DNA of 64,000 bases. It comes from an uncultured Gemmatimonadaceae bacterium (GTDB lineage Bacteria > Gemmatimonadota > Gemmatimonadetes > Gemmatimonadales > GWC2-71-9). The position numbers were made by a program, and so were the translations under genes. Each line of letters begins with the position of its first letter. Within the stretch, counting starts at the first letter, position 1. This document shows, in pieces, positions 332 through 59,065 of the stretch. The notes under the pieces were generated by a model. That model made no database searches, was not told where the DNA came from, and saw only the letters and a list, made by a program, of their open reading frames with translations. The DNA lies in NCBI GenBank assembly GCA_964574295.1, contig CAZNLY010000006.1, positions 48,805 through 112,804 on the forward strand, given 5' to 3'.

Positions 332-2353
<2,022 letters not shown>

Positions 2354-2394
2354 GGGGAAAAGCTACGGATCGGAGGGGAGGGGCGCAAATATGA

Positions 2395-2537
2395 GGGACT
2401 TAGGGACTTACGGACTTGAGGACTTGGAGGGGAGGAAAGGCAAAAGGGAAAGGAGGCGCGTCCCCGCTCGGCGGCCCTCCTTTCCCCTTTCTCCTTCCGC
2501 CCCTCCAAGTCCCTTAGTCCCCTAGTCCCCAAGTCCC
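2395..2537. repeat. purine-rich long imperfect palindrome (repeat family 1, copy A)
   Basis: Left arm GGACTTGGAGGGGAGGAAAGGCAAAAGGGAAAGGAGG (2420-2456), 19-nt loop, right arm CCTCCTTTCCCCTTTCTCCTTCCGCCCCTCCAAGTCC (2476-2512). Flanked by inverted GGGACTTA-type short tandem units. The core GGAGGGGCGGAAGGAGAAAGG recurs at about 4860, 19490 and 49860. Confidence 0.7.
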
Positions 2538-2541
2538 ATTG

Positions 2542-4791: not shown

Positions 4792-4853
4792 CGATCCCGG
4801 GATGGAAGGGTGCGAAAGGGGGACGTTGCAGCACGGGCCGCGTTCACACAAGC

Positions 4854-4884
4854 GGGAGGGGCCCTTCTCCTTTCTCCTTCGTCC
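4854..4884. repeat. partial copy of repeat family 1 (copy D)
   Basis: GGGAGGGGCCCTTCTCCTTTCTCCTTCGTCCC. Its reverse complement contains GAAGGAGAAAGGAGAAGGG, matching the family core. Lies between the amidase stop and the start of the upstream gene. Confidence 0.4.
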
Positions 4885-6873: not shown

Positions 6874-6942
6874 GGCGACAAGCTACCCCCGGGGCGCGAG
6901 GTGCGACAAGCACTCGAACGCTCGTCCGGGCCGCGGAACCGA

Positions 6943-6971
6943 TTGACGCTCCCCGTGGCCCGGCCTAGATT
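6943..6971 (+). promoter_or_regulatory. candidate sigma-70-type promoter for the PP2C/FHA operon
   Basis: TTGACG (6943-6948), 17 nt, TAGATT (6966-6971), in the divergent intergenic region about 70 nt upstream of the PP2C start. Sequence match only. Confidence 0.35.
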
Positions 6972-7042
6972 CCCCGACCCCCTCCCCCCTCGCTCCGGAG
7001 CACCCGTGGCTCGGCGATCCTCCCCCCTCCCTCCCCGAGTCA

Positions 7043-8152
7043 TTGCCTAGTCCCGTGGCCTCCGCTCCCATTCACGTCTCCGTCTCCGGTCGCACCGACG
7101 TCGGCCGCACCCGCGACCACAACGAGGACACCTTCCTCGTGGCCGACCTCAGCACCGGCCAGGTCACCATCGAGCCGGGGCTCCACGAGCGTGTGGCGGG
7201 CGACCGGGGGATGCTGCTCATGGTGGCCGACGGGATGGGGGGCGCGGCCGCCGGCGAACTGGCCAGCGCGCTGGCCGCCGAGACGATTCACGCGCACCTG
7301 GCGGCCACCTGGTCGAAGGAATCGGAGTCGGGCGGGGAGCGGTTCGCGTTTCGAATGCGCGAGGCGGTGGAGGAGGCCAACGCCCGGATCCACGCCTACG
7401 CCCTGGAGCACACCGACGTGCGCGGGATGGGAACGACGGTGACCGCCGCCGGTGTGTACGGCCCCGACCTCTACATCGCGCAGATCGGCGACAGCCGGGC
7501 GTACCTCGTCCGCCAGGGCCAGGCCACCCTCCTCACCAAGGATCAGTCCCTGACGCAGCGGCTCGTGGACGCCGGCGAGCTCACGGAGGAGGAGGCCGAG
7601 CGCAGCGAGCGGCGAAACATCATCCTCCAGGCGCTGGGACCAGACCCGCAGGTCCGGGTGGACCTGACCCACGAGCCGCTCCGCCGCGGCGACCTCCTCA
7701 TCCTCTGCAGCGACGGGCTCAGCAACCAGGTCAAGCGCGAGGACTTCTCGTCGCTGGCGGCCTCCACCCCCGACCTCGACGCCCTCTGCGCCGCCTTGAT
7801 CTCCGTGGCCAACGAACGGGGCGGCCCCGACAACATCACGGTCGTCGCGGCCCGGTTCGAGGGTCCCGGCCTCCCCCTGGGCGACGTGAGCGAGCCGCCG
7901 GGCCATCACGTCTATGCCCTCCCGGGCGACGCGCCCCTGGAGGAGGACTTCCGGACCGGATACTCCACCGGTGAGATCCGCCCCGCCGATCGCGTGGGGA
8001 TCACCTACCCCGCCCCGGCCTCGGCCGTGGCCGCCGTCGCCACCGACCGCGCCATTCCGGCCCCACCCGTCCGCCGGCGCCTTCCGGTGGCGCTGCTCAG
8101 CAGCATCATCATCGGCGCCGCCATCCTGCTCTACTTCCTGCTGACCCGATGA
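7043..8152 (+). CDS. PP2C-family Ser/Thr protein phosphatase with C-terminal TM anchor
   Basis: GRTDVGRTRDHNEDTF, MVADGMGGAAAGELAS, ILCSDGLS, GGPDNITVV motifs. C-terminal LPVALLSSIIIGAAILLYFLL. Start is TTG 7043 or GTG 7055. The stop overlaps the next ATG (ATGA). Confidence 0.9.
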   Translation: MPSPVASAPIHVSVSGRTDVGRTRDHNEDTFLVADLSTGQVTIEPGLHERVAGDRGMLLMVADGMGGAAAGELASALAAETIHAHLAATWSKESESGGERFAFRMREAVEEANARIHAYALEHTDVRGMGTTVTAAGVYGPDLYIAQIGDSRAYLVRQGQATLLTKDQSLTQRLVDAGELTEEEAERSERRNIILQALGPDPQVRVDLTHEPLRRGDLLILCSDGLSNQVKREDFSSLAASTPDLDALCAALISVANERGGPDNITVVAARFEGPGLPLGDVSEPPGHHVYALPGDAPLEEDFRTGYSTGEIRPADRVGITYPAPASAVAAVATDRAIPAPPVRRRLPVALLSSIIIGAAILLYFLLTR

Positions 8153-9558
8153 CCCCGCGCCTGGCCATCCTCTCCGGCGCGCGCGCCGGGGCAGTGGAGC
8201 CGCTGCCGGGGGCGGTGGCGAGCATCGGGCGCCACGCCACCTGCCAGGTCCGGCTCGACCCCGACGCCGACGTGCAGGTGTCCAGCCGGCATGCGGTCAT
8301 CCAGCGCCGGGACGCCGCCTGGGTGGTGCGCGACCTCGGCAGCGCCCAGGGCACCTACGTGAACGGGCAGCGGATCGAGGCGGAGCAGCCGCTCAATGAC
8401 GGCGACGTGCTGCGGCTGGGGGCGGAGGGCCCGGAACTCCAATTCCTCCTCTCCGATCGCGCCGTCGTGGCCGCGCCGAGCGCGGCGCCGACGGCGGCGC
8501 AGCCGGGCAGGCCGACGCTGTCGCCCGAGGAACTGGCGCGGATCCTCGAGGAGGAACAGGCGGGGCTGCTGGCGCGGGAGATGGCGGCCGCCGCTCGCCG
8601 CCGCCAGCTGGTGCGGATTGCCGTCGGCACCCTCATGGCGATCACCGTGGTGACGACGGCGGTGGTGCTGGGCCGGCGCGCCGCGCTGAGGCGCGCGGAA
8701 ATCGAGGCGAGCACCGCGGAGCTGGCCCGGGCCGACAGCCTCATGGCGTCGGTCGCGACGCTCCGCGCCACCACCCCGGCCATGCAGGCGGCCCTCGACT
8801 CGGCCCGGCAGTCGGCCCGCCGGCTGCGGATGGCCCTCGACTCCTCCGGCCACAGGCCGGAGGCGATCCGCCCACTGATGACGCGACTCGATTCCGCCGT
8901 GGGGCGGCAGCGCGTGATCGCGGCTGCGGCGGCGTTCGACGCCCCGGCGATCGCGGCGCCGAGCGCCTTCGGGGTGGCGTTCGTGGTGGCCCAGTATGCC
9001 GACGGGAGCGAGGTGACCGCCACCGCCTCGGCGGTCCGCCGCGACGGCACCGGCGTGGTGCTGCTCACCTCGCGCGCGGTGGGAATCAGCGCCGCCTCGA
9101 TCCCGCCGGATCGGGTGCTCGTGCGCTACCCGGGCGTGGCGGGCGCGCTCTCCGCCACGGTGCTCGCGACGCACCTCACCGAAGACCTGGCGCTGCTGCG
9201 CGTGGCGCAGCGCGGCGGGTTGCCGGTGGTCCAGGGGCTCGGATGGAAGGACCCGCCACTGGCAGCCGGCGCGCCCGTGGCCGTGACGGCGTACGCCGCG
9301 CCGGCGCCCGCCGGCGACGGTGACTGGGCCAAGGCCTCCGTCGTGTCCAGCACGACCACCGGCACGGCGGTTCGGGTGACCAAGGAATTCATCACGGTGG
9401 ATGGGTGGGGGGCGGAGCTGGCGGCGGGGGCGCCGGTCTTCGACGCCGAGGGGCTGGTGGCGGGGGTGGTCTCGTCGGCGGCGCCCTCGAGCGGCGGGCG
9501 GCTCTACGACGTGGTGCCGGTCATCTACGCGTTGGAGCTGCTCGACCAGCTGCAGTAA
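8149..9558 (+). CDS. FHA domain - TM - trypsin-like (apparently non-catalytic) domain protein
   Basis: N-terminal FHA (SIGRHATCQVRLDPDADVQVSSRHAVIQRRDAAWVVRDLGSAQGTYVNGQRI). TM IAVGTLMAITVVTTAVVLG. C-terminal HtrA/trypsin_2-like blocks LLTSRAV, DLALLRV and GAELAAGAPVFD. Confidence 0.8.
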   Translation: MTPRLAILSGARAGAVEPLPGAVASIGRHATCQVRLDPDADVQVSSRHAVIQRRDAAWVVRDLGSAQGTYVNGQRIEAEQPLNDGDVLRLGAEGPELQFLLSDRAVVAAPSAAPTAAQPGRPTLSPEELARILEEEQAGLLAREMAAAARRRQLVRIAVGTLMAITVVTTAVVLGRRAALRRAEIEASTAELARADSLMASVATLRATTPAMQAALDSARQSARRLRMALDSSGHRPEAIRPLMTRLDSAVGRQRVIAAAAAFDAPAIAAPSAFGVAFVVAQYADGSEVTATASAVRRDGTGVVLLTSRAVGISAASIPPDRVLVRYPGVAGALSATVLATHLTEDLALLRVAQRGGLPVVQGLGWKDPPLAAGAPVAVTAYAAPAPAGDGDWAKASVVSSTTTGTAVRVTKEFITVDGWGAELAAGAPVFDAEGLVAGVVSSAAPSSGGRLYDVVPVIYALELLDQLQ

Positions 9559-33402: not shown

Positions 33403-34734
33403 TCACTCCCCGAGCCGTTCCGCGACCCACCCCGGCAGCTGCGCCGCCGCGATCCGGTCCTGGTTCATCGCGTCGCGGTGCCGGACGGTCACGGTGTCGT
33501 CCTGCAGCGTCTGCCCGTCCACCGTCACGCAGTACGGGGTGCCCGCCTCGTCCATCCGGCGGTAGCGCCGCCCCACCGCCCCGCTGTCATCGTAGAAGGC
33601 CGGCACCCGGCGCTTGAGGTCGTGGTAGAGCCGGGTGGCGTACTCCGGCATCCCGTCCTTCTTGACGAGGGGGAAGACGCCGGCCTTGATCGGGGCGATG
33701 GTCGGGTGGAAGCCCAGCACCACCCGCGTCTCGCCCTCGACCTCCTCCTCGCGGTAGGCGTCCACCAGGGTGGTGAGCGTCACGCGGTCGGCGCCGGCCG
33801 AGGTTTCCACGATGAAGGGGACGTACCGCTCGTTGGCCGCCTGGTCGAAGTAGTCGAGCTTCTTGCCGGACATCGCCTGGTGGCGCTGGAGGTCGAAGTC
33901 GGTCCGGTTGTGGATGCCCTCGATCTCGTTCCAGCCGAACGGGAACTCGTACTCGATGTCGAACGCGGCCTTGGCGTAGTGGGCCAGCTCACCCGGCCCG
34001 TGCTCGTGCCAGCGGAGCCGGGACGGCGTGAGCCCGATGGACACGTGCCACTCCATTCGCCAGGCCCGCCACCGCTCGAACCACTCCGCGTCGGTGCCCG
34101 GCTTGACGAAGAACTGCATCTCCATCTGCTCGAACTCCCGGGTGCGGAAGATGAAGTTGCCCGGGGTGATCTCGTTGCGGAACGCCTTGCCGATCTGGGC
34201 GATGCCGAACGGCACCTTCTGGCGCGAGCCCTGGAGCACGTTGAGGTAGTTGACGTAGATCCCCTGCGCCGTCTCGGGGCGGAGGTAGACCACCGCCGCC
34301 GATTCCTCGACCGGGCCCATGAAGGTCTTGAACATCAGGTTGAAGAGCCGGGGCTCCGTCAGCTCGCAGGCGGTGTGTTGGCCGGGCCGCTTGCTCGGTT
34401 TCTGGGGGCACTGGGCGTCCTGGAGCTTGTCGGCGCGGAAGCGGGCCTTGCAGGTCTTGCAGTCCACGAGCGGATCGGTGAAGCCCGCCACGTGGCCCGA
34501 CGCCTCCCAGACCTTGGGGTGCATCAGGATGGCGGCGTCCAGCCCCTCGATGTCGTCGCGGGCGTGGACCATGGCGCGCCACCACCGGTCCTTGACGTTC
34601 TTCTTGAGCTCGACCCCCAGCGGGCCGTAGTCCCACACCGACCCGAGCCCCCCGTAGATCTCGGAGGACTGGAACACGAATCCGCGCCGCTTGCAGAGCG
34701 ACACGAGCTTGTCCATGCGGGTGGTGTCGGCCAT
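33403..34734 (-). CDS. glyQS: glycine--tRNA ligase (homodimeric type)
   Basis: ATG 34734. MADTTRMDKLVSLCKRRGFVFQSSEIYGGLGSVWDYGPLGVELKKNV, FRNEITPGNFIFRTREFEQMEMQFF, anticodon-binding C-terminus. Confidence 0.95.
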   Translation of the reverse strand: MADTTRMDKLVSLCKRRGFVFQSSEIYGGLGSVWDYGPLGVELKKNVKDRWWRAMVHARDDIEGLDAAILMHPKVWEASGHVAGFTDPLVDCKTCKARFRADKLQDAQCPQKPSKRPGQHTACELTEPRLFNLMFKTFMGPVEESAAVVYLRPETAQGIYVNYLNVLQGSRQKVPFGIAQIGKAFRNEITPGNFIFRTREFEQMEMQFFVKPGTDAEWFERWRAWRMEWHVSIGLTPSRLRWHEHGPGELAHYAKAAFDIEYEFPFGWNEIEGIHNRTDFDLQRHQAMSGKKLDYFDQAANERYVPFIVETSAGADRVTLTTLVDAYREEEVEGETRVVLGFHPTIAPIKAGVFPLVKKDGMPEYATRLYHDLKRRVPAFYDDSGAVGRRYRRMDEAGTPYCVTVDGQTLQDDTVTVRHRDAMNQDRIAAAQLPGWVAERLGE

Positions 34735-34820
34735 CGAACGGCTCGGGGTGCGGGAAGGGGCGATTGGAGTACGCGGATAATAGACGGGGCCGGGAGGGCC
34801 GACAAGCAACCGAAGCGGGT

Positions 34821-34838
34821 GCAAGCGCTTGCGCGCAA
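34821..34838. promoter_or_regulatory. palindromic upstream site 1 (candidate enhancer-binding-protein site)
   Basis: GCAAGCGCTTGCGCGCAA, i.e. GCAAG-N2-CTTGC-N2-GCAA. Centred about 104 nt upstream of the -24 GG at 34934. Matches the site at 39248 in 17 of 19 positions. Confidence 0.45.
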
Positions 34839-34933
34839 ATCGCGTCGCTGGGGGCAGAAACGGGCACCTTCCACGACGTGGTGCGACCGCCTAACTTCCT
34901 GCGCGCCAGTGGGTTAAAGTTCGGTCGCCAGGC

Positions 34934-34947
34934 GGCACCCGACTTGC
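34934..34947 (+). promoter_or_regulatory. sigma-54 type -24/-12 promoter element, pilin module 1
   Basis: GGCACCCGACTTGC has the GG-N10-GC spacing and the GGCAC...TTGC bases of the TGGCACG-N4-TTGCW consensus. 88 nt upstream of GTG 35035. Identical 14-mer at 39360. Confidence 0.6.
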
Positions 34948-35034
34948 TCACCCCACCCAGCTTGGCCGGAGTCGACGCCGCACGAAGTGTCCGGGCGTCC
35001 GTTCCACCTCTCCCGCGATTGCCGAGGACCGCCG

Positions 35035-35631
35035 GTGAACTGCCCATCTCGAACGCCCCCGGGCCCGCGCGCCGGGTTCACGCTGGTGGAGATGCTGATC
35101 GTGGTGATCATCATCGCGATCACCTCCGCCATCGCGTTCCCCAAGATCAACGTGTCGCGCATCCGGTCGAAGGCGGCCATCACCACCCTCGGCACCACGA
35201 TGCTGGCCATCCAGCGCGACGCCATCGCCAAGCAGCACAACGTCCTCGTGCTGGTGGACTCGGTGAACGCCCGGCTCCGGGTGGCCTACGACTCGACCAA
35301 CGACCTCCGGATCACGACGGGGGAGCGGGTGCGGGCGGTGGACCTGGGCGAGGAGATCGTCTTCGGCCGGCCGTCGGGCGTGCCGGCACGGCCCTTCGGG
35401 ACCAACCCGATCAACTTCGTGCAGCGGGAGCCCACCACCAACCTCCCGGTCATCATCCTCTACCGGAACGGCAGCGCCTCCGAGGCCGGCGGGCTCTACC
35501 TGAGCACCGTCAAGGCCATGGCCGGGCTGCCGGGCCACCAGAACGAGACCTGGGCCATGGAAATGGTCCGGGCCACGGGACGCGCGGAATGGATGCGCTG
35601 GAACGGCACCGGCTGGGTGCGGGGGTTCTGA
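35035..35631 (+). CDS. prepilin-type protein, GspH/FimT/FimU-like pseudopilin (module 1)
   Basis: GAGGA then GTG 35035 (longest ORF starts at GTG 34987). Class III signal ...GPRAG|FTLVEMLIVVIIIAITSAIAFP with Glu+5. 198 aa. The stop shares one nt with the next ATG. Confidence 0.8.
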   Translation: MNCPSRTPPGPRAGFTLVEMLIVVIIIAITSAIAFPKINVSRIRSKAAITTLGTTMLAIQRDAIAKQHNVLVLVDSVNARLRVAYDSTNDLRITTGERVRAVDLGEEIVFGRPSGVPARPFGTNPINFVQREPTTNLPVIILYRNGSASEAGGLYLSTVKAMAGLPGHQNETWAMEMVRATGRAEWMRWNGTGWVRGF

Positions 35632-36029
35632 TGCGGACCAACGAACGCGGCTTCACGCTCATCGAGATGGCCATCGCCCTCACGATCCTGTCGATCGTGC
35701 TCGTGGCCATTCCCTACGCCGGCCTCCGCTTCACCAAGGCCGTCTCCACCAACCGGGTGCGCAACGAGGCGAACGCGATCGCCGACGCGTGGATCGCGCA
35801 GTGCCGCTCGCTGCCCAACTACGCCGCCCTCGACTCCACCAACGGCCGGTGCCGCGGCACGGTGACCGGGCTCGGCACGTACAACTTCACCCGGACCACC
35901 ACCGTGACCGGCGACGCCACCCTTTCCGGCGTGGCCGACTCCCTCAACAACTACAAGCGGATCTCCGTCGTCGTCACCTCGACCTCGCTCGCCTCGCCGG
36001 TCAAGCGGACGGTGACGGTGGCCAAGTGA
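35631..36029 (+). CDS. prepilin-type protein, PilV/GspI-sized minor pilin (module 1)
   Basis: MRTNERG|FTLIEMAIALTILSIVLV, 132 aa. Found as the C-terminal part of track ORF 34764..36029. Confidence 0.8.
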   Translation: MRTNERGFTLIEMAIALTILSIVLVAIPYAGLRFTKAVSTNRVRNEANAIADAWIAQCRSLPNYAALDSTNGRCRGTVTGLGTYNFTRTTTVTGDATLSGVADSLNNYKRISVVVTSTSLASPVKRTVTVAK

Positions 36030-36043
36030 GGAGGGAGCCCCCC

Positions 36044-37225
36044 ATGCGCACCCGCCGCGGCGTGACCCTGGTCGAGATGCTGATCGCCATCACCGTCTTC
36101 ACGATGGTGCTGGCGGCCACCCTCGGGTTCCTCTCCCGCATCACGCGCGGGCTCGACCGGAACGCCAGTGACATGGGCATGCTGCAGAACCTGACCTTCG
36201 CCAGCTCGATCCTGCAGGAGGAGCTGCGGATGGCCGGGGCCAACGTGCCCTTCAAGCAGCCGGTCATCATCTACGCCGGCGCCAACTCCTTCAGCTTCAA
36301 CGCCGACTACGCCTCGAACGTGGACAGCCTGTACGCGGTGTACCTGCTGCCCAACCTGCCGGCCGGGCAGCGCAACGCGATGATCCCGGCCGACCGGATC
36401 GCCATCCCGGGGTCGAGCCCGTCGTTCAGCTACCCCGACTCGACGTACATGGCCGACGGCGGCGCCGCGATGCCGAGCCCCGCCGAGACGATCACCTGGT
36501 TCTTTGCCCTCGACACCAGCACCACGGCGGGCAACGACTACGTCCTCTTCCGGCAGGTCAACGACCAGCCGCCCGAGGTGGCCATCCGCAACGTCATCCA
36601 GACCCCGGGCCGGAACTTCTTCCGCTACTACTACAAGCGGATTCCCGCCTCGGGCACCTCGTCCTCCTCGCTCGATACCGTGCCGACCGCCTGGATGCCG
36701 CTCCGGCACACCCAGGGCGTCCACGGCATGCCGTCGGACACGGCGGCGGCGGCGCGGGTGGACAGCCTGGCCCAGGTGGAGGTGGCCTTCACGGTCACGA
36801 ACGCCCTCACCGGCGCCAACCAGCGGACGCGGGCCATCTCGTTCATCGTGCCGATGCCGAACATGGGCACCAAGAAGGTCACGAGCTGCGGGGACATGCC
36901 CCTCTTCGGGTCGGGCATCACCACCACCTGGCAGATCAACACCGCCGCCTCCCCGCCCGACACCTTCATGCTCATCCGGTGGAACCGCGCCACCGACGAG
37001 ACTGGCGGCGAGTCCGACGTGGTGGCGTACATCATCTGGCGCCGCCTCCTGAGCGAGACGACGTGGGACGAGCCGCTGGCGGCGGTCCCGGCGGGTGCCG
37101 CCAATCCCAGCTTTGCCGACCAGACGGCCAATCCCGGCACCCAGTACACCTACGCCGTGGCGGCCCAGGATTGCACCCCGACGCTGTCGACGATGTCGAC
37201 GGCCTCACCCCCCGCCTCCCCGTGA
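36044..37225 (+). CDS. prepilin-type protein, PilW/GspJ-like, with C-terminal FN3-like domain (module 1)
   Basis: GAGGAGGGA SD then ATG 36044. MRTRRG|VTLVEMLIAITVFTMVLAA. The C-terminal region LIRWNRATDETGGESDVVAYIIWRR...ANPGTQYTYAVAAQD follows the fibronectin type III pattern. Confidence 0.8.
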   Translation: MRTRRGVTLVEMLIAITVFTMVLAATLGFLSRITRGLDRNASDMGMLQNLTFASSILQEELRMAGANVPFKQPVIIYAGANSFSFNADYASNVDSLYAVYLLPNLPAGQRNAMIPADRIAIPGSSPSFSYPDSTYMADGGAAMPSPAETITWFFALDTSTTAGNDYVLFRQVNDQPPEVAIRNVIQTPGRNFFRYYYKRIPASGTSSSSLDTVPTAWMPLRHTQGVHGMPSDTAAAARVDSLAQVEVAFTVTNALTGANQRTRAISFIVPMPNMGTKKVTSCGDMPLFGSGITTTWQINTAASPPDTFMLIRWNRATDETGGESDVVAYIIWRRLLSETTWDEPLAAVPAGAANPSFADQTANPGTQYTYAVAAQDCTPTLSTMSTASPPASP

Positions 37226-37248
37226 GGCGGCCCCGGAGGGCAGGCACC

Positions 37249-39168
37249 ATGTCGTCCACCCACTTCGTCCGGAACCGGCGCGGCGTCGCGCTCATCACCG
37301 TGATGCTGGTGGCGTTCGCCGCGTCGGCGATCGCCCTGGCGGCGGTGATGATGACGCTCAACGCCAACCTCGTGGCCAAGAACACCGAGCGGGTGTCGGT
37401 GGTGGACGCCGCCGCCATCGCCGGGCTGGAGGAGGCGCGGAGCCGGCTCAACGGCACCCGGGGGCTCTACCCGAACAACGGGTACGTCACCCTCGAGAAC
37501 AACGTGCCGGTCAAGGACGCCTTCAACGCCGCCATCCCGACCGTGACGCGGTCCACGTACATCGGCCCCAGCGGCATCACGAGCGGGCAGTACGGCGTGG
37601 TGGGGAGCATCATCACCGTGGCACGGGACAGCTTCGGCAACCGGGTGGTGCGCCGGCTCGAGGTGAACCAGGAGAGCTTCTCGAAGTTCGCCTACTTCAC
37701 GAACGAGGAGACCGACACCACCGGCAGCACCGTCGTGTTCGCCAGCGGCGACCAGCTCCGCGGCCCGGTGCACTCCAACGACCAGATCCGGATCGGTTCC
37801 TCGCCGACCCCGGCGGTGACCTTCTTCGACCAGGTGACCACCGCCAACGCGTCCATCAACAACCAGTCGAATGGGTCGTTCATCAAGCCGCCGCTCCTCA
37901 GCCAGCCGCGCATCCCGATGCCGACGGTGGCGGACCTCAACAAGCTCGACAGCCTGGCCCAGGTGGGCTCCACCCGCTTTGCCGGCTCCACCGCCGGCGA
38001 CGCCGGCGAGGCGCGCACCCGCGTCCACTTCCTGACCATCGACCTGGGCCCGCCCTACGGCGTCCAGGGCTTCTTCATGGTGTACCAGGCCGGCACCCTC
38101 ACCACCGTGGGGCAGCCGGAGGACTTCGTCTCCGCCAGCCTCCCGACCACGTCGGGCACCACCGGGGGCTACCTGGAGCTCTCGCCCAACTGCGGCGACT
38201 ACGGCACCGGCGGCCGCTTCATGCCCGCGTACTATCACGACACGACCACCCAGGCGGCGCACCTGCACGTGGCCGGCAGCACCAACGCCAACAAGATCGC
38301 GCGCCGCGACTCGTCCCTCACCCGGGGCACCAACTCCCGCTGCTTCCTCGGGGGCGACTCCATCCTGACGAAGCCGGCCATCGCCACGGGCGCCAACGCC
38401 ACCTGGCCGACCAACGGGCACCCTGACGGGGGGGCCTGGGTGGCCGCCCCGGGAGGCATCCAGGCGGCGCTCGCGGCGCTGGGCCCCGTCATCACCAACC
38501 GGCCCGACGCCAACTATCTCTTCCCCCTCAGCCGCCAGTGGAACTCGCGGTTCAAGGGGATCGTCTTCGTGGCGGGCAAGGTCATCGTGGACGGCGTCAT
38601 CCACGGCCGGGTGACCGTGGCCGCCACCGGCAACGTGATCTTCGGCGATGACGTCACCTACTATCAGGGCCAGACCCGCGACTGCGCCACCGGCGACATC
38701 GCCGGGTACTTCTCCGGGCAGTCGCTCCTCGTGTCGAACAACACGGTCAACGCGCCGCAGACCCTGAACAACAACAGCTCGCTCTCGACCGCGCCGTCGG
38801 GGACCTTCCGCAGCTACGATGAGACCGCGAACGAGACGATCCTCGGCTTCTTCCTGACCCTCCGGACCTTCGGCGCGGAGGAGAACAACCTCGGCGCCGA
38901 CGACTCGGAGCGCTGCCTCATCGGCGGCACCTTCAGCGCCGGCCGCGGCTGCCTCGTGACGTTCGGCGGGATCATCCAGGAGAACCGCGGCGCCGTCGGC
39001 CTCACCAGCGGCGAGGGATACGTCAAGCGCTACCAGTACGACGCCTGCGGCGCCACCGACCCGCCGCCGTACTACCCGACCACCGGCGTGTTCATCAAGA
39101 ACCGCTTCTACGAGCTCGACCCGACGCGGTTCAACGTGGCCGGCTGGTTCGCCGCCAACCAGAACTAG
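37249..39168 (+). CDS. large PilX_N/GspK-like prepilin-type protein (module 1)
   Basis: ATG 37249. MSSTHFVRNRRG|VALITVMLVAFAASAIALAAV (no Glu+5). 639 aa. Shares the motif F.F.YF..E......G.VHSN..I with the next gene. Confidence 0.75.
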   Translation: MSSTHFVRNRRGVALITVMLVAFAASAIALAAVMMTLNANLVAKNTERVSVVDAAAIAGLEEARSRLNGTRGLYPNNGYVTLENNVPVKDAFNAAIPTVTRSTYIGPSGITSGQYGVVGSIITVARDSFGNRVVRRLEVNQESFSKFAYFTNEETDTTGSTVVFASGDQLRGPVHSNDQIRIGSSPTPAVTFFDQVTTANASINNQSNGSFIKPPLLSQPRIPMPTVADLNKLDSLAQVGSTRFAGSTAGDAGEARTRVHFLTIDLGPPYGVQGFFMVYQAGTLTTVGQPEDFVSASLPTTSGTTGGYLELSPNCGDYGTGGRFMPAYYHDTTTQAAHLHVAGSTNANKIARRDSSLTRGTNSRCFLGGDSILTKPAIATGANATWPTNGHPDGGAWVAAPGGIQAALAALGPVITNRPDANYLFPLSRQWNSRFKGIVFVAGKVIVDGVIHGRVTVAATGNVIFGDDVTYYQGQTRDCATGDIAGYFSGQSLLVSNNTVNAPQTLNNNSSLSTAPSGTFRSYDETANETILGFFLTLRTFGAEENNLGADDSERCLIGGTFSAGRGCLVTFGGIIQENRGAVGLTSGEGYVKRYQYDACGATDPPPYYPTTGVFIKNRFYELDPTRFNVAGWFAANQN

Positions 39169-39190
39169 GCCCAGCAGAACGCGCTACCGA

Positions 39191-39216
39191 CGAGCCCCCG
39201 CCCCCGCGGGGGCTCG
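39191..39216 (+). terminator. GC-rich stem-loop after pilin module 1
   Basis: CGAGCCCCCGC-cccc-GCGGGGGCTCG (perfect 11-bp stem) followed by TTGCGTT, 23 nt after the stop at 39168. Confidence 0.55.
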
Positions 39217-39247
39217 TTGCGTTCGGGGGCTCCGGCGCCCGCGCCCT

Positions 39248-39266
39248 GCAAGGGCTTGCACGCAAG
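39248..39266. promoter_or_regulatory. palindromic upstream site 2 (candidate enhancer-binding-protein site)
   Basis: GCAAGGGCTTGCACGCAAG, i.e. GCAAG-N2-CTTGC-N2-GCAAG. Centred about 103 nt upstream of the -24 GG at 39360. Confidence 0.45.
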
Positions 39267-39359
39267 AGGCGGCACGACCGGGCTCTCTGGCCGAAAAATG
39301 CAGTTCAAGTAATCTGGTAACACCATGTGTGACAACGCTTTAGATAGATCCCAGAACCG

Positions 39360-39373
39360 GGCACCCGACTTGC
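39360..39373 (+). promoter_or_regulatory. sigma-54 type -24/-12 promoter element, pilin module 2
   Basis: GGCACCCGACTTGC, identical to 34934..34947. 85 nt upstream of ATG 39458. Confidence 0.6.
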
Positions 39374-39457
39374 CAATTCTCCCGCGGACGTCCGCCGCCA
39401 CGCCCCCGGCCCCCGGAGCGTACAGCGGTGGACCACGACCCAAGTTCGGAGTGCCCG

Positions 39458-41257
39458 ATGCGCATGCCTGACCAGCAGCACCCCCTCCAGCCCAGCCTGG
39501 CCGACCGGCGCGGGTTTGCGCTCGAGGCCACGCTGATCGTCCTCGTCCTCGTGTCCGTGCTGGTGGCGGCCTCGGTGGCGAGCTACGTGATGATCCAGAA
39601 GTCGGGCAACGTGGACTACCGCGGGACCCGCGTGTCCTACGCCGCCGAGGCGGGGGCCGACGCCGTCATTTCGCAGCTGGCCGCCAACATGACCGACGGC
39701 ATCCTGAGCTCGGCCGACATCGCGTCGATCACCCTGCCCACCCTCAGCGGCTTCACCTTCGCCACGCCGACCGTCACCACCATCGGCGCACCGGTGCCGC
39801 GCACCATCACCTACGGCCCCTTCAGCGGGCTGATGGGCCTCAACCAGCGGATCGACATCGGCATCACCGCCACCGACGGCCTGGGCAACCGCGGCCAGGT
39901 GGTCGTGACCGCCAACGCCCAGTCGATCCCGCTCTTCCAGTTCGGCGTGTTCTACGACGAGGACCTGGAGATCCACAACGGCCAGAACATGGACTTTGCG
40001 GGCTGGGTGCACAGCAACTCGAACATCTACCTGACGCCGGGCGGCTCGGCGGTGACGAGCTTCCACGACCTCATCACCACCCCGGACAGCCTCTTCTGGC
40101 AGCGGAAGGCCTACAGCGAGCGGAACGCCAACGTGCGGATCGACAACGCCTCCGCGGTGGCGCAGACCCTCAACTTCGACAGCCGGAGCAACCCCGGGCA
40201 GTCGTTCGTGACGGCCAGCAATTCCCTCGTCAACGGCCGGGTCATGACCGGCGTGAGCGGCGTCCAGCCCCTCCGCCTGCCGCTCCCGGTGGGCATGCCC
40301 CCGATCGAGCTGATCCGCCCGCGCAACGGGGCCGACGACGCCGACACCCGCGCCGTCAAGTTTGCCTGGAAGGCCACGGCCCACATCACGGTGGACCTGG
40401 CCCAGCTGGCCAACGTCAACACCTGCGCCGGCCTGACGATCATCGGGTCGCCGCTGCCCACCGGGGCCAGCTGCGCCATGTTCACCGGGATCCCGCAGGC
40501 GTTCTGGGACGGGCGCGAGAACATCGGCGCCGACGTCTTCCAGATCGACGTGGGCGCGCTCCAGACCTGGGCGGCCGGCAGCGCGGCGCGCGACTACAGC
40601 ATCATCTACGTCACGTTCACGAACTACAGCGCCACGACGAACACCCGCGACTATCCCGTGGTGCGGATCCGGAACGGCGCCACGCTGCGGAAGCCGATCA
40701 CCATCTCCACCGACCGCCCCCTCTACCTCTGGGGCGACTACAACACCGTCGGCTGGTACCCGGCCTCGTTCATCGCCGACGCCATCATCTTCCAGTCGAG
40801 CGCCTGGACCGACGCCGCGCACCCGCTCACCGGCCACACCGCCGCGGGCGGCGGCACCGACTGGCTCAACCCGGCCCAGAACACCGCCAACAACATGACG
40901 GTGTACGCCGCCATCGCCGCCGGGCACTCGGCCACCCCCTGCGACTGGCAGCGCGCCTGCACGCCGAGCGCCCCGCCCCCGCTCGTCGGCTCGACGAGCA
41001 ACTACGGCGGCGGGCTCGAGAACTTCCCCCGCTTCCTGGAGAACTTCAGCGGGCGCACGGTGACCTACCGCGGCTCCCTGGTGTCGCTCTTCCAGAGCCA
41101 GTACGCCAACCGGCGCCGGTGGAGCTGGACCTCCTACTACGGCGTCCCCACGCGTGACTGGCGCTTCGACCTCCGCTTCCGGGACCCGAACAACCTTCCC
41201 CCGGGCACCCCGGTGGTGGGCAGCGTGGTGCAGACCTCCTTCCGGCCGGTGTTCTAG
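39458..41257 (+). CDS. large PilX_N/GspK-like prepilin-type protein (module 2)
   Basis: ATG 39458 (alternatives GTG 39428, ATG 39464). ...LADRRG|FALEATLIVLVLVSVLVAASVA. 599 aa. IPLFQFGVFYDEDLEIHNGQNMDFAGWVHSNSNIYL motif. C-terminal GGGLENFPRFLENFSGRTVTYRGSLVSLF...RDWRFDLRF. Confidence 0.75.
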   Translation: MRMPDQQHPLQPSLADRRGFALEATLIVLVLVSVLVAASVASYVMIQKSGNVDYRGTRVSYAAEAGADAVISQLAANMTDGILSSADIASITLPTLSGFTFATPTVTTIGAPVPRTITYGPFSGLMGLNQRIDIGITATDGLGNRGQVVVTANAQSIPLFQFGVFYDEDLEIHNGQNMDFAGWVHSNSNIYLTPGGSAVTSFHDLITTPDSLFWQRKAYSERNANVRIDNASAVAQTLNFDSRSNPGQSFVTASNSLVNGRVMTGVSGVQPLRLPLPVGMPPIELIRPRNGADDADTRAVKFAWKATAHITVDLAQLANVNTCAGLTIIGSPLPTGASCAMFTGIPQAFWDGRENIGADVFQIDVGALQTWAAGSAARDYSIIYVTFTNYSATTNTRDYPVVRIRNGATLRKPITISTDRPLYLWGDYNTVGWYPASFIADAIIFQSSAWTDAAHPLTGHTAAGGGTDWLNPAQNTANNMTVYAAIAAGHSATPCDWQRACTPSAPPPLVGSTSNYGGGLENFPRFLENFSGRTVTYRGSLVSLFQSQYANRRRWSWTSYYGVPTRDWRFDLRFRDPNNLPPGTPVVGSVVQTSFRPVF

Positions 41258-41258
41258 G

Positions 41259-41825
41259 ATGCCGGCCATGCGGCACGACGCCCGGGGCTTCACGCTCGCC
41301 GAGATGATGATCGTGATCGTCGTCCTCGGCCTGGCGACGATGATGATGGTGCCGCGGTTCCGCGCCTCGAGCAAGACCAAGGCGCGGATGGCGGCCACCC
41401 AGCTGACCGCGGACCTCGAGCTGGCCCGGGCCAAGGCGATGGCCCGCCGGGCCACCGTCCGCGTGGTGTTCAATACCGCCGCCAACAGCTACACCGGCTA
41501 CCTCGACTTCGACCGCGACGGGGTCATCGGGCAGACGCTGGCCGAGCGGGACTCGCTCAACGCCTTCGGCACCCGGACCCTCCCCAACGGGGCGGTCTTC
41601 GGGCGGGCGGGCCAGGCGGACATCACCGACTTTGCCGGCTCGGGGGGGATCACCTTCCCGACGCCGCAGATCAATTTCGACGGGCGCGGCCTCACCACCC
41701 CCTTCGGCACCCGCGGCGTCGTGTATGTGCAGCGCACCGATGACTCCGCCGCCGTGGCGGCGGTGACGGTGTCGGGTGCGGGGGGCGTCCGGCTGTGGAC
41801 CACCGAGGGAGGGTACTGGCGATGA
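41259..41825 (+). CDS. prepilin-type protein, GspH/FimT/FimU-like pseudopilin (module 2)
   Basis: ATG 2 nt after the upstream TAG. MPAMRHDARG|FTLAEMMIVIVVLGLATMMMVP. 188 aa. The stop overlaps the next ATG (ATGA). Confidence 0.8.
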   Translation: MPAMRHDARGFTLAEMMIVIVVLGLATMMMVPRFRASSKTKARMAATQLTADLELARAKAMARRATVRVVFNTAANSYTGYLDFDRDGVIGQTLAERDSLNAFGTRTLPNGAVFGRAGQADITDFAGSGGITFPTPQINFDGRGLTTPFGTRGVVYVQRTDDSAAVAAVTVSGAGGVRLWTTEGGYWR

Positions 41826-42193
41826 CCCGGCAGCGCGAAGGCGGCTTCACCCTGATCTCGGTGATCATCGCCGTGGTCATCCTCTCGGTCGGCATCATGG
41901 CCCTGGGCAAGACCCAGGGGATGCTGATCCGGGCCCAGGCCACGAACGCGGAGCGGAACGTGGCGCTCGGCATCGCCCGCAACTACGTGGAGGAGGTGCG
42001 GTCGCGCACCGCCGTGCCCGCCTCGGAGCCCTCGGCCCGCGTCGATGCAACTGGCGCCCTCTCAGGCACGGGCGCCTACCGGCGCACCCTCGACGTGGCC
42101 GACCTGGGCAACAACCTCTACCGCGCCACCTGCAACGTGACGTACCCGCGCGGCACCGTGCCCGTGTCCATCGTCACCCTCATCTACCGGTGA
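41822..42193 (+). CDS. prepilin-type protein, PilV/GspI-sized minor pilin (module 2)
   Basis: MTRQREGG|FTLISVIIAVVILSVGIMAL (Ser in place of Glu+5), 123 aa. Confidence 0.75.
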   Translation: MTRQREGGFTLISVIIAVVILSVGIMALGKTQGMLIRAQATNAERNVALGIARNYVEEVRSRTAVPASEPSARVDATGALSGTGAYRRTLDVADLGNNLYRATCNVTYPRGTVPVSIVTLIYR

Positions 42194-42198
42194 CCGCC

Positions 42199-43122
42199 AT
42201 GCGCCTTCACGCCCCCACCGGCCGGGCGGGCTTCACCCTGGTCGAGCTGATGATCGCGATGATCGCCGGCCTGGTGGTCCTGGCCGCGGCCACCGCCGCC
42301 GTGGCCTCCACCTGGCGGGGCCTCTCCGCCGGCCGCATGCGCGAAGGCATCGAACGGAACGCCCGCTTCATCAACGAGGCGCTCCAGCGCGACCTCTCCG
42401 AGACCGGCGTGGACCTGGCCTCCAGCGTCCGCTTCGGGAGCCTCTCGGTGCGGGGCGACACCATCGTCGTCCTGAGCGTGCCCTACACCAACGGTGTGGC
42501 GGCCGCGGCGCACACCTTCCAGTACGGGGGCGCCCCGCTCGCGCCGGGCACCGGCAGCTGCGGCACCTGGTGCGTGGACGTGGACACGGTGGCCTGGGAC
42601 CTCGCGGCGAACGACGTCGCAGTCCTGCAGTCGAGCAACGAGCGGCGCCTGATCCAGGTCACGAACGTGACGCGGAGCGGGGCCATTGCCTCGATCACCT
42701 TCCGGTCCGACACGACGCTCCTGCAGCACGAGGCGGCGTACGCCCGGAACCTCCAGCTGGCCAACAACGGCACCGCCGTGACCCGGATGAAGTTCGTGGC
42801 CTACTGGGTGGACAACGGGCGGCTGATGCGCGCCGAGCGGATGAATCCGGACGGCACGCCGGCGGGAGAACTGATTGCGACGGGGGTGGACAGCATTCGC
42901 GTCCGCCTGGTGTTCAGCGACGGCAGCGAGGCCACCACCGCCAACCCGACGGACGCGAGCGGCAACAACGATTGGGACGACATCCTGGCGGTGCGGGTGT
43001 TCGCCACCCTCCGGTCCGACCCGACCGACCTCCGCCTCAACGGCGGGCAGCCGGTCACGCGGAACTTCGGCTGGTGGTTTGCGCCCCGGAACCTGCGCTA
43101 CGAGAAGAACCGCATCAACTGA
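42199..43122 (+). CDS. prepilin-type protein, PilW/GspJ-like (module 2)
   Basis: MRLHAPTGRAG|FTLVELMIAMIAGLVVLAAATAA, 307 aa. No FN3-like tail. Confidence 0.8.
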   Translation: MRLHAPTGRAGFTLVELMIAMIAGLVVLAAATAAVASTWRGLSAGRMREGIERNARFINEALQRDLSETGVDLASSVRFGSLSVRGDTIVVLSVPYTNGVAAAAHTFQYGGAPLAPGTGSCGTWCVDVDTVAWDLAANDVAVLQSSNERRLIQVTNVTRSGAIASITFRSDTTLLQHEAAYARNLQLANNGTAVTRMKFVAYWVDNGRLMRAERMNPDGTPAGELIATGVDSIRVRLVFSDGSEATTANPTDASGNNDWDDILAVRVFATLRSDPTDLRLNGGQPVTRNFGWWFAPRNLRYEKNRIN

Positions 43123-43134
43123 CCGGGGTCGGCG

Positions 43135-44412
43135 CTAGACCTCGATGATCTGGTCGCGGCGCGTGCCGACGCTCACGTAGCGGATCGGCGCGCCCGCGAG
43201 GTCCTGCAGGCGGTCGAGGTACGCCCGTGCCTCGGGCGGCAGGTCGGCCATGCGCCGGGCGCCCTCGGTGGACTTCCGCCACCCCGGGAGCGTCTCGTAG
43301 ACCGGCTCCACCTGGTCCAGCCGCTCCACCTCGGCCGGCAACGCGTCCGTCCCCTCCCCATCCACGCGGTAGCCCGTCCCCACCGGAATCTCGGCGAAGG
43401 TGTCCAGCACGTCGAGCTTGGTCACCGCCAGCCCCGTGAGGCCGTTGACCCGCACGGAGTAGCGCACCACGCTGGCGTCGAACCAGCCGCAACGCCGGGG
43501 GCGCCCCGTCACGGCGCCAAACTCGCCGCCGATGCGCTGCAGCGCGGCGCCGGCCTCGCCGTGGGCCTCCGTCGGCAGGGGGCCGTTCCCCACCCGTGTG
43601 GTGTAAGCCTTCACCACGCCCAGCACGCCGTCGATGGCGGTGGGCCCGATGCCCGCCCCCACCGCGGCCCCGCCGGCCGTCGTGTTCGAGCTCGTCACGT
43701 ACGGGTAGGTGCCGTGGTCCACGTCGAGCAGCGCCCCCTGCGCGCCCTCGAGCAGCACCCGCTGGCCTGAGCGGAGCGCCTGGTGCACCAGGAGCCCGGT
43801 GTCGGTGGCCAGGGGAAGGAGCCGGGGCGCCAGCCGCTCCAGGAGCGCCACATGCTCCTCGAGCGACGCCGGCGCCGCGCCCATCATCGCGAGGAGCTGG
43901 TTGGCGCGCTCGATCCGCGCGGCGAGCTGGGCGCGGAGCGCCGTGGCGTCGCGGAGGTCGGCCACCCGCACGCCGCGGCGGCCGTACTTGTCCTCGTAGG
44001 TCGGGCCGATGCCGCGCCCGGTGGTGCCGATCTTCTGGGACTTCTCGCTGGCGGCGTCGAGCAGCTTGTGATACGGCAGCACGAGGTGCGCCCGCTCCGA
44101 CACGAAGAGCCGGCCTGCGGTGTCCACCCCCCGCCCCGTGAGTCCGTCCAGCTCCTTGAAGAGCGTCTCCGGGTCGAGCACCACCCCATTGCCGATGACG
44201 CACGTGGCCCGGCGGTGCAGGATGCCCGACGGGATCTGCTGCAGGATGAACTGGTCCTCGCCGATGACGACGGTGTGGCCGGCGTTGGCGCCCCCCTGGT
44301 AGCGCACCACGCAGTCGGCGCGCTCCGACAGGACGTCCACCAGCTTTCCCTTGCCCTCGTCGCCCCACTGGGCGCCCACCACCACCACGCAGTGGGTTTT
44401 CGGATCGAACAT
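43135..44412 (-). CDS. purA: adenylosuccinate synthase
   Basis: VVVGAQWGDEGKGKLVD, YQGGANAGHTV, GTTGRGIGPTYEDK. Confidence 0.95.
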   Translation of the reverse strand: MFDPKTHCVVVVGAQWGDEGKGKLVDVLSERADCVVRYQGGANAGHTVVIGEDQFILQQIPSGILHRRATCVIGNGVVLDPETLFKELDGLTGRGVDTAGRLFVSERAHLVLPYHKLLDAASEKSQKIGTTGRGIGPTYEDKYGRRGVRVADLRDATALRAQLAARIERANQLLAMMGAAPASLEEHVALLERLAPRLLPLATDTGLLVHQALRSGQRVLLEGAQGALLDVDHGTYPYVTSSNTTAGGAAVGAGIGPTAIDGVLGVVKAYTTRVGNGPLPTEAHGEAGAALQRIGGEFGAVTGRPRRCGWFDASVVRYSVRVNGLTGLAVTKLDVLDTFAEIPVGTGYRVDGEGTDALPAEVERLDQVEPVYETLPGWRKSTEGARRMADLPPEARAYLDRLQDLAGAPIRYVSVGTRRDQIIEV

Positions 44413-45590: not shown

Positions 45591-46661
45591 CTAGCGGGCC
45601 TTCTTCCTGCGGTCGCGCGGCTCCGGTTCGGACTCGCCGCGGGCAGCGGCCGCGGCCGTCTCCTCGGTAATCAGTCCTTCCTTGACCAGGTCGGCCAGGC
45701 TCTGCTCGAAGGTCTGCATCCCGTGCTGGTCGCGCCCCAGGGACATCAGCGTGCGGAGCTCGTTCCACCGCGTCGGGTTCTTGATGCAGGCCCGTACCTG
45801 GGGCGTGTTCACCAGGATCTCGATCGCCGCGACGCGCCCCTCCTCGTCGGCGCGGGGCAGGAGCTGCTGGGCCACGATGCCGCGCAGCGCCTCCGCCAGA
45901 CGGACCCGGCCGATGTCCCGCTCCTCCGGGGGGAACATCGCCACCAGGCGCTCGATGGTGGTGGGCACGTCGGCGGTCGGCATGGCGGAAATGACCAGGT
46001 GGCCCGTCTCCGCGGCCTTCACGGCGATGTCGGCGGTCTCCGGGTCGCGCATCTCGCCGATGAGGACCACGTCGGGGTCCTGCCGGAGGGCGGCCCGGAG
46101 CCCGATGGCCATCGACTCGGTATCCACGCCCACCTCGCGCTGGGTCACCGAGCAGTTGAGGTCGCGGTGGAGGAACTCGATCGGGTTCTCGATCGTCACC
46201 ACGTGCTTCTGTTTGGTCCGGTTGATGTGCTCGATGATGGCGGCCACGGTGCTGGTCTTCCCGCTGCCGCTCACGCCGGTCACGAGGAGCAGCCCGCGTT
46301 CCGAGTCGGCCAGGGTCGACACGACCTCCGGCAGGCCGAGGGAGGCCACCGAGGGCACCGCGAACGGGATGACGCGCATCACGATCATGAACGACGACCG
46401 CTGGCGGAGCACGTTCACCCGGAACCGCCCGACGCCGGGCATGCCCCAGGAGCAGTCGAAGTCGCGCAGCTTGTCGAGCTGGGCGCGGTCCTCCTCGCTC
46501 GGGATCAGCTTGTAGGCGATCGCGCGGGTCTGGTCGGGGGTGAGCCGCTGCTTGGTGAGCGGCACCAGCTTGCCGTTGATCCGGGCGCGAAAGACGTCGC
46601 CGGCCTTGATGTGGAGGTCGGAGGCGCCCCGCTCGACGGCGGCCTTGATGATCTTTTCCAT
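45591..46661 (-). CDS. pilT: type IV pilus retraction (twitching motility) ATPase PilT
   Basis: GASDLHIKAG, Walker A GVSGSGKTST, TIENPIEFLH, ALRQDPDVVLIGEMRD, His-box region. Confidence 0.9.
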   Translation of the reverse strand: MEKIIKAAVERGASDLHIKAGDVFRARINGKLVPLTKQRLTPDQTRAIAYKLIPSEEDRAQLDKLRDFDCSWGMPGVGRFRVNVLRQRSSFMIVMRVIPFAVPSVASLGLPEVVSTLADSERGLLLVTGVSGSGKTSTVAAIIEHINRTKQKHVVTIENPIEFLHRDLNCSVTQREVGVDTESMAIGLRAALRQDPDVVLIGEMRDPETADIAVKAAETGHLVISAMPTADVPTTIERLVAMFPPEERDIGRVRLAEALRGIVAQQLLPRADEEGRVAAIEILVNTPQVRACIKNPTRWNELRTLMSLGRDQHGMQTFEQSLADLVKEGLITEETAAAAARGESEPEPRDRRKKAR

Positions 46662-58777: not shown

Positions 58778-59065
58778 TCAGCCCTCGAACACCGGCAGCG
58801 TCTCGCCGTCCTTGAGGACGACGACGGCCTTCTTCCACCGCGCGGTCGCGCCGCGGGTGCGGCCCCGGGTGACCTCGTGGCGCCGCATCTGCATGGTGCG
58901 GACGTCGGTGGCGGTCACGCCGAAGAGCTGGCGGAGCGCCTCGCGAATCTGGTGCTTGTTCGCCTCCGGGTGCACGCGGAACGCGTACTCCCGGCGCGCC
59001 TGGAAGGCCGCCGAGCTCTTCTCGGTGATCAGCGGCCGGACGATCACTTCGTGCAGGGCGGGCAT
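58778..59065 (-). CDS. rplW: 50S ribosomal protein L23
   Basis: [12 protein letters not shown]; I checked the reading frame codon by codon against the sequence rows. Confidence 0.95.

Follow-up and report, generated by a model that had tools for sequence, protein, structure and literature searches.

Two minor-pilin operons in a Gemmatimonadales genome share a conserved upstream site and a predicted sigma-54 promoter

Introduction

Why do two neighboring pilin operons carry the same short DNA blocks ahead of their first genes, and which proteins would read these blocks? The question is raised by a 64,000-nucleotide stretch of DNA (hereafter, the window) from an uncultured Gemmatimonadaceae bacterium (contig CAZNLY010000006.1 of GenBank assembly GCA_964574295.1, positions 48,805 to 112,804). 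The window contains two adjacent gene modules, g1-g4 and g5-g8, which are identified from their sequences as type IV pilus minor-pilin operons; major pilin genes are not among them. An initial annotation of this DNA had noticed an identical promoter-like element and a similar palindrome upstream of both modules. Our analysis makes it likely that both operons use sigma-54 promoters, which are activated by looping from an upstream site for an enhancer-binding protein.

The Gemmatimonadota are widespread in soils and freshwater, but very few members have been brought into culture, and we know of no characterised promoter or regulator from this phylum. In other bacteria, namely Pseudomonas aeruginosa, Myxococcus xanthus, and Geobacter, pilA is transcribed from sigma-54- and PilR-dependent promoters.

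Results

Both modules are preceded by the same -24/-12 element

The sequence GGCACCCGACTTGC (GGCAC-CCGAC-TTGC) is present on the + strand at positions 34934-34947 (promoter 1) and 39360-39373 (promoter 2). A pattern search confirmed the identity of the two copies, which the initial annotation had reported. The same annotation had named beforehand the possibility that this 14-mer is a common repeat; no third copy was detected in the window, even when two mismatches were allowed. From the base composition of the window (71% G+C), an exact second copy is expected by chance 0.002 times per window and 4e-6 times per 300-nucleotide (nt) region. Furthermore, the longest word common to both intergenic regions is 14 nt, and the maximum in 300 shuffles was 13.

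Both copies have the GG-N10-GC spacing together with the GGCAC and TTGC bases, as had been claimed. The predicted transcription starts are at about 34958-34960 and 39384-39386. The distance from the C of the -12 part to the first start codon was recounted as 88 nt in promoter 1 (34947 to GTG 35035) and 85 nt in promoter 2 (39373 to ATG 39458), the same values as before. The GTG start of g1 agrees with a 198-amino-acid protein, 100% identical, that is annotated in an NCBI metagenome-assembled genome (MAG). When the window was scanned with a promoter matrix built from orthologs only, the two elements took the top two ranks among 128,000 positions, with 19.3 bits for promoter 1 and 16.5 bits for promoter 2; the position ranked third scored 12.5 bits. 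A third, weak matrix match at 59060 (+ strand), amid ribosomal protein genes of the minus strand, was dismissed.

A shared upstream site lies at a fixed distance from each promoter

A candidate activator site was found upstream of each promoter. Site 1 (TGCAAGCGCTTGCGCGCAA, positions 34820..34838) possesses three GCAA/TTGC half-sites, and site 2 (TGCAAGGGCTTGCACGCAA) is at positions 39247..39265; neither is assigned to a strand. With a matrix built from orthologs alone, these sites scored 22.5 and 20.6 bits and ranked first and second in the window. The near-identity of the two palindromic sites, starting at 34820 and 39247, was thus reproduced: the pattern TGCAAG-N2-CTTGC-N2-GCAA matches at these two starts and nowhere else in the window. 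In the window pattern search, GCAAGNNCTTGCNNGCAA was detected only at 34821-34838 and 39248-39265, as compared with 3e-4 exact matches expected by chance.

The distance between site and promoter needed correction. The initial annotation gave about 103-104 nt from the upstream site to the GG at -24. When we counted between the T of TGCAA and the first G of GG, the distance was 114 nt in copy 1 and 113 nt in copy 2, so that the earlier value was off by about 10 nt. The gap between the upstream site and the -24/-12 block is 95 nt in copy 1 and 94 nt in copy 2.

Outside these blocks, the ungapped identity of copy 1 to copy 2 is 0.18-0.44 (random expectation, about 0.30). The statement that the remaining intergenic DNA is not alignable is therefore essentially right, apart from two small features common to both copies: CTAAC/GTAAC at about 42 nt 5' of GG, and a CA[AG]-N4-TTA box ending 18 nt 5' of GG. 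The box is a possible IHF-type bending site. In copy 1 (CAGTGGGTTA, positions 34907..34916), its TTA begins 20 nt 5' of GG, and 5 of 9 IHF core positions agree. In copy 2 (CAACGCTTTA, positions 39333..39342), the core WATCAANNNNTTR agrees at 7 of 9 positions, and the candidate lies within the only A+T-rich stretch of the region. Both assignments are tentative.

The blocks and their phasing are conserved among related loci

We gathered eighty metagenome loci by alignment of g5 homologs and eleven more by g1 homologs; the loci are given as L numbers below. More than 600 homologs of the g5 protein were found, and every one with an organism name belongs to Gemmatimonadales. Twelve orthologous metagenome loci keep both elements at about 80-90% pairwise identity. 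In the orthologs at 73-89% protein identity (L082-L090, L152, L162, and L165/166), GGCAC/T-N5-TTGC precedes the first pilin gene, and TGCA[AG]-N4-[TC]TGC[AG]-CGCAA is located 113-114 nt further upstream. In L082-L090 and L152, the promoter element is at the same place as promoter 2 of the window. The gap between GG and GC is exactly 10 nt, without any indel, in the 22 tabulated ortholog sites and in further ortholog sites.

Phylogenetic footprinting was performed with 10 promoters (window copy 1, L082, L083, L085-L087, L089, L090, L152, and L165), which were aligned without gaps and anchored on GG. The mean pairwise identity was 0.89 for the -24/-12 element, 0.80 for the core of the upstream site, and 0.61 for the CA[AG]-N4-TTA box, versus 0.28-0.38 for the spacers and the 5' untranslated region (UTR), where about 0.30 is expected at random. 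The TTA that begins 20 nt 5' of GG is invariant in all 10 promoters, and the whole CA[AG]-N4-TTA box is present in about 6 of them. These results bear out the view that the blocks are selectively conserved, as orthologs keep the blocks and their spacing and the DNA between them is at random identity. The two bipartite elements, the composite dyad sites, and the TTA-containing box are under purifying selection across the orthologs.

The combination of site and promoter is also specific. In 1.83 Mb of DNA, the combined pattern gave 18 matches, and 17 of these are upstream of the pilin modules described here. The spacing from the site to GG was 114 nt in 12 matches, 113 nt in two, and 145 nt in three. 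The spacing of 145 nt belongs to one sublineage, and the additional 31 nt correspond to three helical turns. Thus, the elements are unique in the window, selectively conserved, and held at a fixed phase.

Upstream of the gene, the coding strand carries GG-N8-TTGC in 7 of 7 orthologs of at least 76% identity and in 20 of 51 non-redundant g5 homologs, as compared with a shuffle mean of 4.3 and with 5 on the opposite strand. Furthermore, the 5' regions of more remote promoters of this type are enriched in TGCAA/TTGCA half-sites: 11 were observed versus 3.4 expected, and only 4 of 2000 shuffles reach 11. A strict motif search of 80 genome loci anchored on glyQS gave almost no matches; most species representatives possess no pilin module beside glyQS.

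Two further observations were made in these alignments. In L082-L090, L152, and L165, a second conserved block, GGCGCGATCG-N9-TTGCGCG, was found 19-60 nt 3' of the T of TGCAA, directly after the core of the upstream site. Little of this block is left in either window copy; it may be another binding site for the activator. In the g5 homologs of about 45% identity (L118-L137, L146, L151, and L153), no -24/-12 element was found in the 250 nt upstream; these regions contain repeated CGT[CT]AC[AG] boxes, and CGTA[TC][TC]TC near the start codon. The boxes suggest that a different promoter or regulator serves the same operon in these distant relatives.

Candidate readers of the elements

The assignment of sigma-54 and an enhancer-binding protein as readers of these elements draws on the established biology of sigma-54, and several observations weigh against it. 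First, the T at position -26 of the TGGCAC consensus is replaced by C in copy 1 and by G in copy 2. It is present in 3 of 22 ortholog sites versus 18 of 18 Escherichia coli promoters, although this T, frequent in the consensus, is outside the essential doublets. Second, the window elements rank 5-7 with an independent core matrix, which was derived from 18 E. coli sigma-54 promoters that have experimental support (PMC2831329 Table 1), and this matrix alone fails to separate them from a few intragenic chance matches. Third, the reverse complement of promoter 2, TGGCAA-GTCGG-GTGC (39360-39374, - strand), also resembles a -24/-12 element, and its score with the E. coli matrix slightly exceeds that of the + strand, although the orthologs do not keep this orientation. 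Fourth, the finding that GG and TTGC never vary in the distant loci is partly circular, since those sites were found by that pattern. Finally, neither rpoN nor a gene for an enhancer-binding protein was detected in the 64 kb window by a six-frame scan for GAFTGA, the activator Walker A motif, and the RpoN box, or by a Pfam scan of about 45 open reading frames, in agreement with the initial annotation.

These points leave room for other readers. The palindrome might be the operator of a dimeric transcription factor, and GGCAC-N5-TTGC might be the site of another factor or an unusual promoter of the sigma-70 family, for example of the extracytoplasmic function (ECF) type. A palindrome alone does not tell which family of proteins binds it, and there is no activator gene in the vicinity; the missing T at -26 fits such readers as well, and the visibly different upstream motifs of the operon in distant homologs point to evolutionarily plastic regulation. 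However, a consensus scan of the + strand of 34600-39600 gave no sigma-70-type promoter, and the aligned orthologs have no conserved -10-like hexamer at a fixed distance 3' of TTGC. The strict gap of 10 nt between GG and GC and the preference for C-A-C after GG, which was not selected by the search pattern in the distant sites, match sigma-54. In addition, a site more than 110 base pairs (bp) upstream, with phase-preserving spacings of 114 and 145 nt, is a trait of looping activators and is atypical of class I/II activators or repressors. We therefore regard readers of another kind as unlikely, and keep sigma-54 with an enhancer-binding protein as the preferred assignment.

The initial annotation had gone further and proposed a PilR-like activator of sigma-54-dependent pilin genes. 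The layout of a sigma-54 promoter with an upstream site stands, but the label PilR-like finds no support: the window contains no PilS/PilR pair of kinase and activator, and the targets are minor pilins of the GspH/PilV/PilW/PilX types, with no major pilin. An activator gene with GAFTGA was not found within 3-10 kb of the orthologous loci, either. In six-frame scans of all loci, an activator was detected in L045 only and RpoN in L052 only, and neither locus is labelled Gemmatimonadota.

Within the phylum, RpoN is documented for another member only. Gemmatimonas aurantiaca T-27 has a sigma-54 ortholog (PMC3162934 supplement 1; PMC3372290 Table 1), and G. aurantiaca has at least one homolog of enhancer-binding proteins (PMC3162934 supplement 3). 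Our search of the literature on sigma-54, rpoN, and minor pilins in Gemmatimonadota yielded the presence of RpoN at the phylum level and no promoter work, and no usable match came from a search for published enhancer-binding proteins that recognise a TGCAA-type site.

The interval between purA and glyQS is a variable slot

Among the relatives, the content of the purA-glyQS interval varies. In L084-L090, glyQS is followed by the site, the promoter, and then module 2 directly, whereas in L162 and L165/166, the site and the promoter are followed by module 1. The closest relatives, L082 and L152, possess both modules in the order of the window, and in L098 and L171/172, module 2 precedes module 1. 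The one-module relatives have a single intergenic region, and its ortholog in the window is the glyQS-proximal half of the first intergenic region, with upstream site 1. Because of this orthology, the second promoter copy probably arose via local duplication when a module was added. After the duplication, only the functional blocks and their spacing would have been retained.

It might then be asked whether the blocks are a functionless residue of a recent local duplication, or of gene conversion, during module addition. Both window copies have the spacer CCGAC, whereas most orthologs have CCGAA, which would fit common descent or gene conversion; the occurrence of relatives with one module, or with two in either order, indicates repeated rearrangement between purA and glyQS. 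However, the surrounding DNA is at random identity, both between the copies and among the orthologs, while the blocks are 80-100% identical, and lineages with one module have the same blocks at the same spacing. A mere residue of duplication is thus very unlikely, and retention of functional sigma-54 promoters and upstream sites accounts better for this pattern.

In one Gemmatimonadota MAG (L013, 6854-9362, - strand), the purA-glyQS slot holds a gene for a 786-amino-acid Wzc-like chain-length/tyrosine-kinase protein. Upstream of this gene, GGCACGTCCCTTGC and an A+T-rich tract were found, a candidate for another sigma-54-like promoter in the phylum.

Riboswitches are present in sister lineages

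Cyclic di-GMP-I (c-di-GMP-I) riboswitches (RF01051 or the GGC variant RF03167) were found within the 5' UTR of the g5-type operon in sister lineages, which have about 55% protein identity. They were located in L096 (2279-2354), L099 (2874-2949), L100 (2867-2943), L107 (2885-2959), L156 (2884-2958), and, on the - strand, L005 (1026-1101). In L096, L099, and L005, the riboswitch (RF01051, above the gathering score) begins 56-57 nt 3' of the -24/-12 element. The aptamer of L156, of the c-di-GMP-I-GGC type (41.4 bits, E = 2e-8, below the Rfam gathering score), has its first nucleotide exactly 12 nt 3' of the -12 C of GGCAGGAATCTTGC, which is the +1 predicted for a sigma-54 transcript. No c-di-GMP-I riboswitch was found in the window, and the folding stability of both window 5' UTRs is no higher than that of shuffles.

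The conserved islands might instead be RNA motifs, either of a structured RNA such as a leader, riboswitch, or small RNA, or of a terminator formed by the palindrome. This explanation could appeal to the sister-lineage riboswitches and to the position of site 2 just past the end of module 1, where read-through transcripts could cover it, but is hardly credible: Rfam gave nothing relevant for the whole window at the gathering threshold or for 34600-39600 at a relaxed threshold, RNAalifold with the 10 promoter regions yielded the trivial palindromes alone and no other conserved structure (covariation term, -0.31), the palindromes fold no better than shuffles (z = -0.66 and +0.51), and site 1 lies so close to the divergent glyQS promoter that a + strand promoter would not fit upstream.

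Other leader features were observed in the relatives. In L082, L086, L089, L090, and L152, a conserved 5' UTR hairpin, CAGGCCAC-N5-GTGGCC, with a variable loop is located about 20-45 nt 3' of the -12 element (for example, at about 2950-2975 in L086) and is followed by GACCCGAAGCAGGAGT ahead of the start codon. This hairpin is absent from both window leaders. In L163, L168, and L169/L170, GGCGT[GA][CT]TTCTTGC elements are found about 260 nt 5' of the g1 homologs, with a leader of about 235 nt that has conserved stretches (…caagttgctgggaga.a.cacattcctaa…) and no Rfam match. This leader may be an undescribed leader RNA.

Gene content of the modules and their surroundings

The gene order is glyQS (- strand), module 1 (g1-g4, + strand), a hairpin, module 2 (g5-g8, + strand), and purA (- strand). 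Module 1 is opened by g1 (35035..35631), a prepilin with an N_methyl motif in a FimT/GspH-like position, which is followed by the PilV-like minor pilin g2 (35631..36029), the PilW-like minor pilin g3 (36044..37225), and the large PilX-like protein g4 (DUF4900; 37249..39168). A G+C-rich, terminator-like hairpin at 39189..39223 (+ strand; -36.3 kcal/mol, z = -3.5) closes the module and has counterparts at the same place in L082 and L152. Module 2 consists of g5 (39458..41257; PilX_N-like, 599 amino acids, with a weak PilX_N match), the GspH/FimT-like minor pilin g6 (41268..41825; GspH and N_methyl), the PilV-like g7 (41822..42193), and the PilW-like g8 (42199..43122; weak PilW match). These assignments are from Pfam, which detected the N_methyl motif in g1, g2, g3, g6, g7, and g8.

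On the - strand, glyQS (33403-34734) is divergent from module 1. The glycyl-tRNA synthetase that it encodes shares 80-82% identity with proteins from Gemmatimonadales MAGs. A consensus scan gave a sigma-70-like promoter for glyQS, TTGTCG-17-TATTAT, at 34777..34805 (- strand), 15 nt away from upstream site 1; the GATAAT and CGACAAGC boxes of this promoter are kept in the orthologous loci. On the other side, purA is at 43135-44412 (- strand).

A gene for a PilT-like ATPase (T2SSE; 45591-46661, - strand) is located about 2.5 kb from module 2, from which it is separated by purA and a gene for an M28 peptidase; its own upstream DNA has no matching promoter element. At positions 332-9558 of the window, there is a signalling cluster, which encodes a Ser/Thr protein kinase with a zinc ribbon, one TPR and one Amidase_3 protein, a PP2C phosphatase, and one FHA/trypsin-like protein.

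Discussion

In the proposed mechanism, g1-g4 and g5-g8 would each have their own sigma-54 (RpoN) promoter. The sigma-54 RNA polymerase would occupy GGCAC-N5-TTGC as a closed complex, which would be opened only after contact with an ATP-dependent enhancer-binding protein. This activator would be encoded elsewhere in the genome and would bind TGCAA-N4-TTGCA-CGCAA, centred about 132 bp 5' of the transcription start. It would then contact the polymerase via DNA looping, possibly with an IHF/HU-type bend at the CA[AG]-N4-TTA box, and ATP hydrolysis by this AAA+ protein would drive the opening of the promoter. Since the same site stands at the same helical phase at both operons, joint switch-on by one signal is expected.

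Several known systems can be compared with this arrangement. As in the pilA promoters, a -24/-12 element precedes type IV pilin genes, and an enhancer-binding protein, here predicted, acts from upstream sites; unlike them, the targets are minor-pilin operons, and no PilS/PilR pair is adjacent. To our knowledge, TGCAA-N4-TTGCA-CGCAA bears no resemblance to the published PilR sites of P. aeruginosa. In Klebsiella nifH, a NifA site is near -132 and IHF takes part, and in the enteric glnAp2, NtrC sites are near -140 and -108; activation of such promoters is sensitive to helical phase. The dyad about 130 bp 5' of +1, the possible bending site between, and the phasing of 114, 113, or 145 nt fit this architecture. 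In contrast, the half-sites have another sequence, the regulated genes serve another function in another phylum, and the IHF-like box agrees at only 5-7 of 9 core positions.

The minor-pilin operon fimU-pilVWXY1Y2E of P. aeruginosa, which is controlled by sigma-70 and AlgR, likewise has GspH/FimT-, PilV-, PilW-, and PilX-like genes within one operon. The operon described here differs in that it is duplicated, and both copies have sigma-54-type promoters and a common upstream site. The LuxO sites 5' of the Vibrio qrr genes are TTGCA-W3-TGCAA. There, TTGCA/TGCAA half-sites form an enhancer-binding protein site 5' of a sigma-54 promoter, as is predicted here; however, the half-sites of TGCAA-N4-TTGCA are in the opposite relative orientation with another spacer, and likeness of half-sites does not imply that the binding proteins are related.

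A canonical arrangement of pilin genes was found beside glyQS in L045 (1990-5960), a MAG labelled Planctomycetota with 68% GC. In this locus, an activator gene (GESGTGKE, GAFTGA) is followed by TGGCATTGAAATTGCA / TTTGGCATTGAAATTGCA and, about 70 nt downstream, by a pilin gene (GFSLIEML). A general link between sigma-54 and pili has been described (PMC3162934).

A more extended proposal is speculative, and we put it forward as a possibility that may well prove wrong. TGCAA-N4-TTGCA-CGCAA would be the operator of a lineage-specific enhancer-binding protein, which would govern a sigma-54 regulon dedicated to pilus-tip operons and co-activate two paralogous tip-complex modules; in the sister lineages, the same promoter class would stand in series with the c-di-GMP-I riboswitch. 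If this is true, the composition of the pilus tip would be set by stacked inputs, namely ATP-dependent initiation and c-di-GMP-dependent elongation.

The architecture itself is the classical one of sigma-54 and enhancer, and our understanding of how sigma-54 promoters work is unchanged; what is new is its documentation for minor-pilin operons of Gemmatimonadales. The locus offers a precise cis-regulatory model that can be tested, which consists of a -24/-12 element, an enhancer motif, a fixed phase of 114 bp, and a possible bending site. The candidate enhancer motif is a handle for finding the regulon of the activator in complete genomes. The locus also illustrates, in a small space, how regulation can be rewired, since in sister lineages this operon bears c-di-GMP riboswitches. 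The model applies to an operon for a surface appendage, conserved throughout the order, and it predicts that one activator would turn on both sets of minor pilins together.

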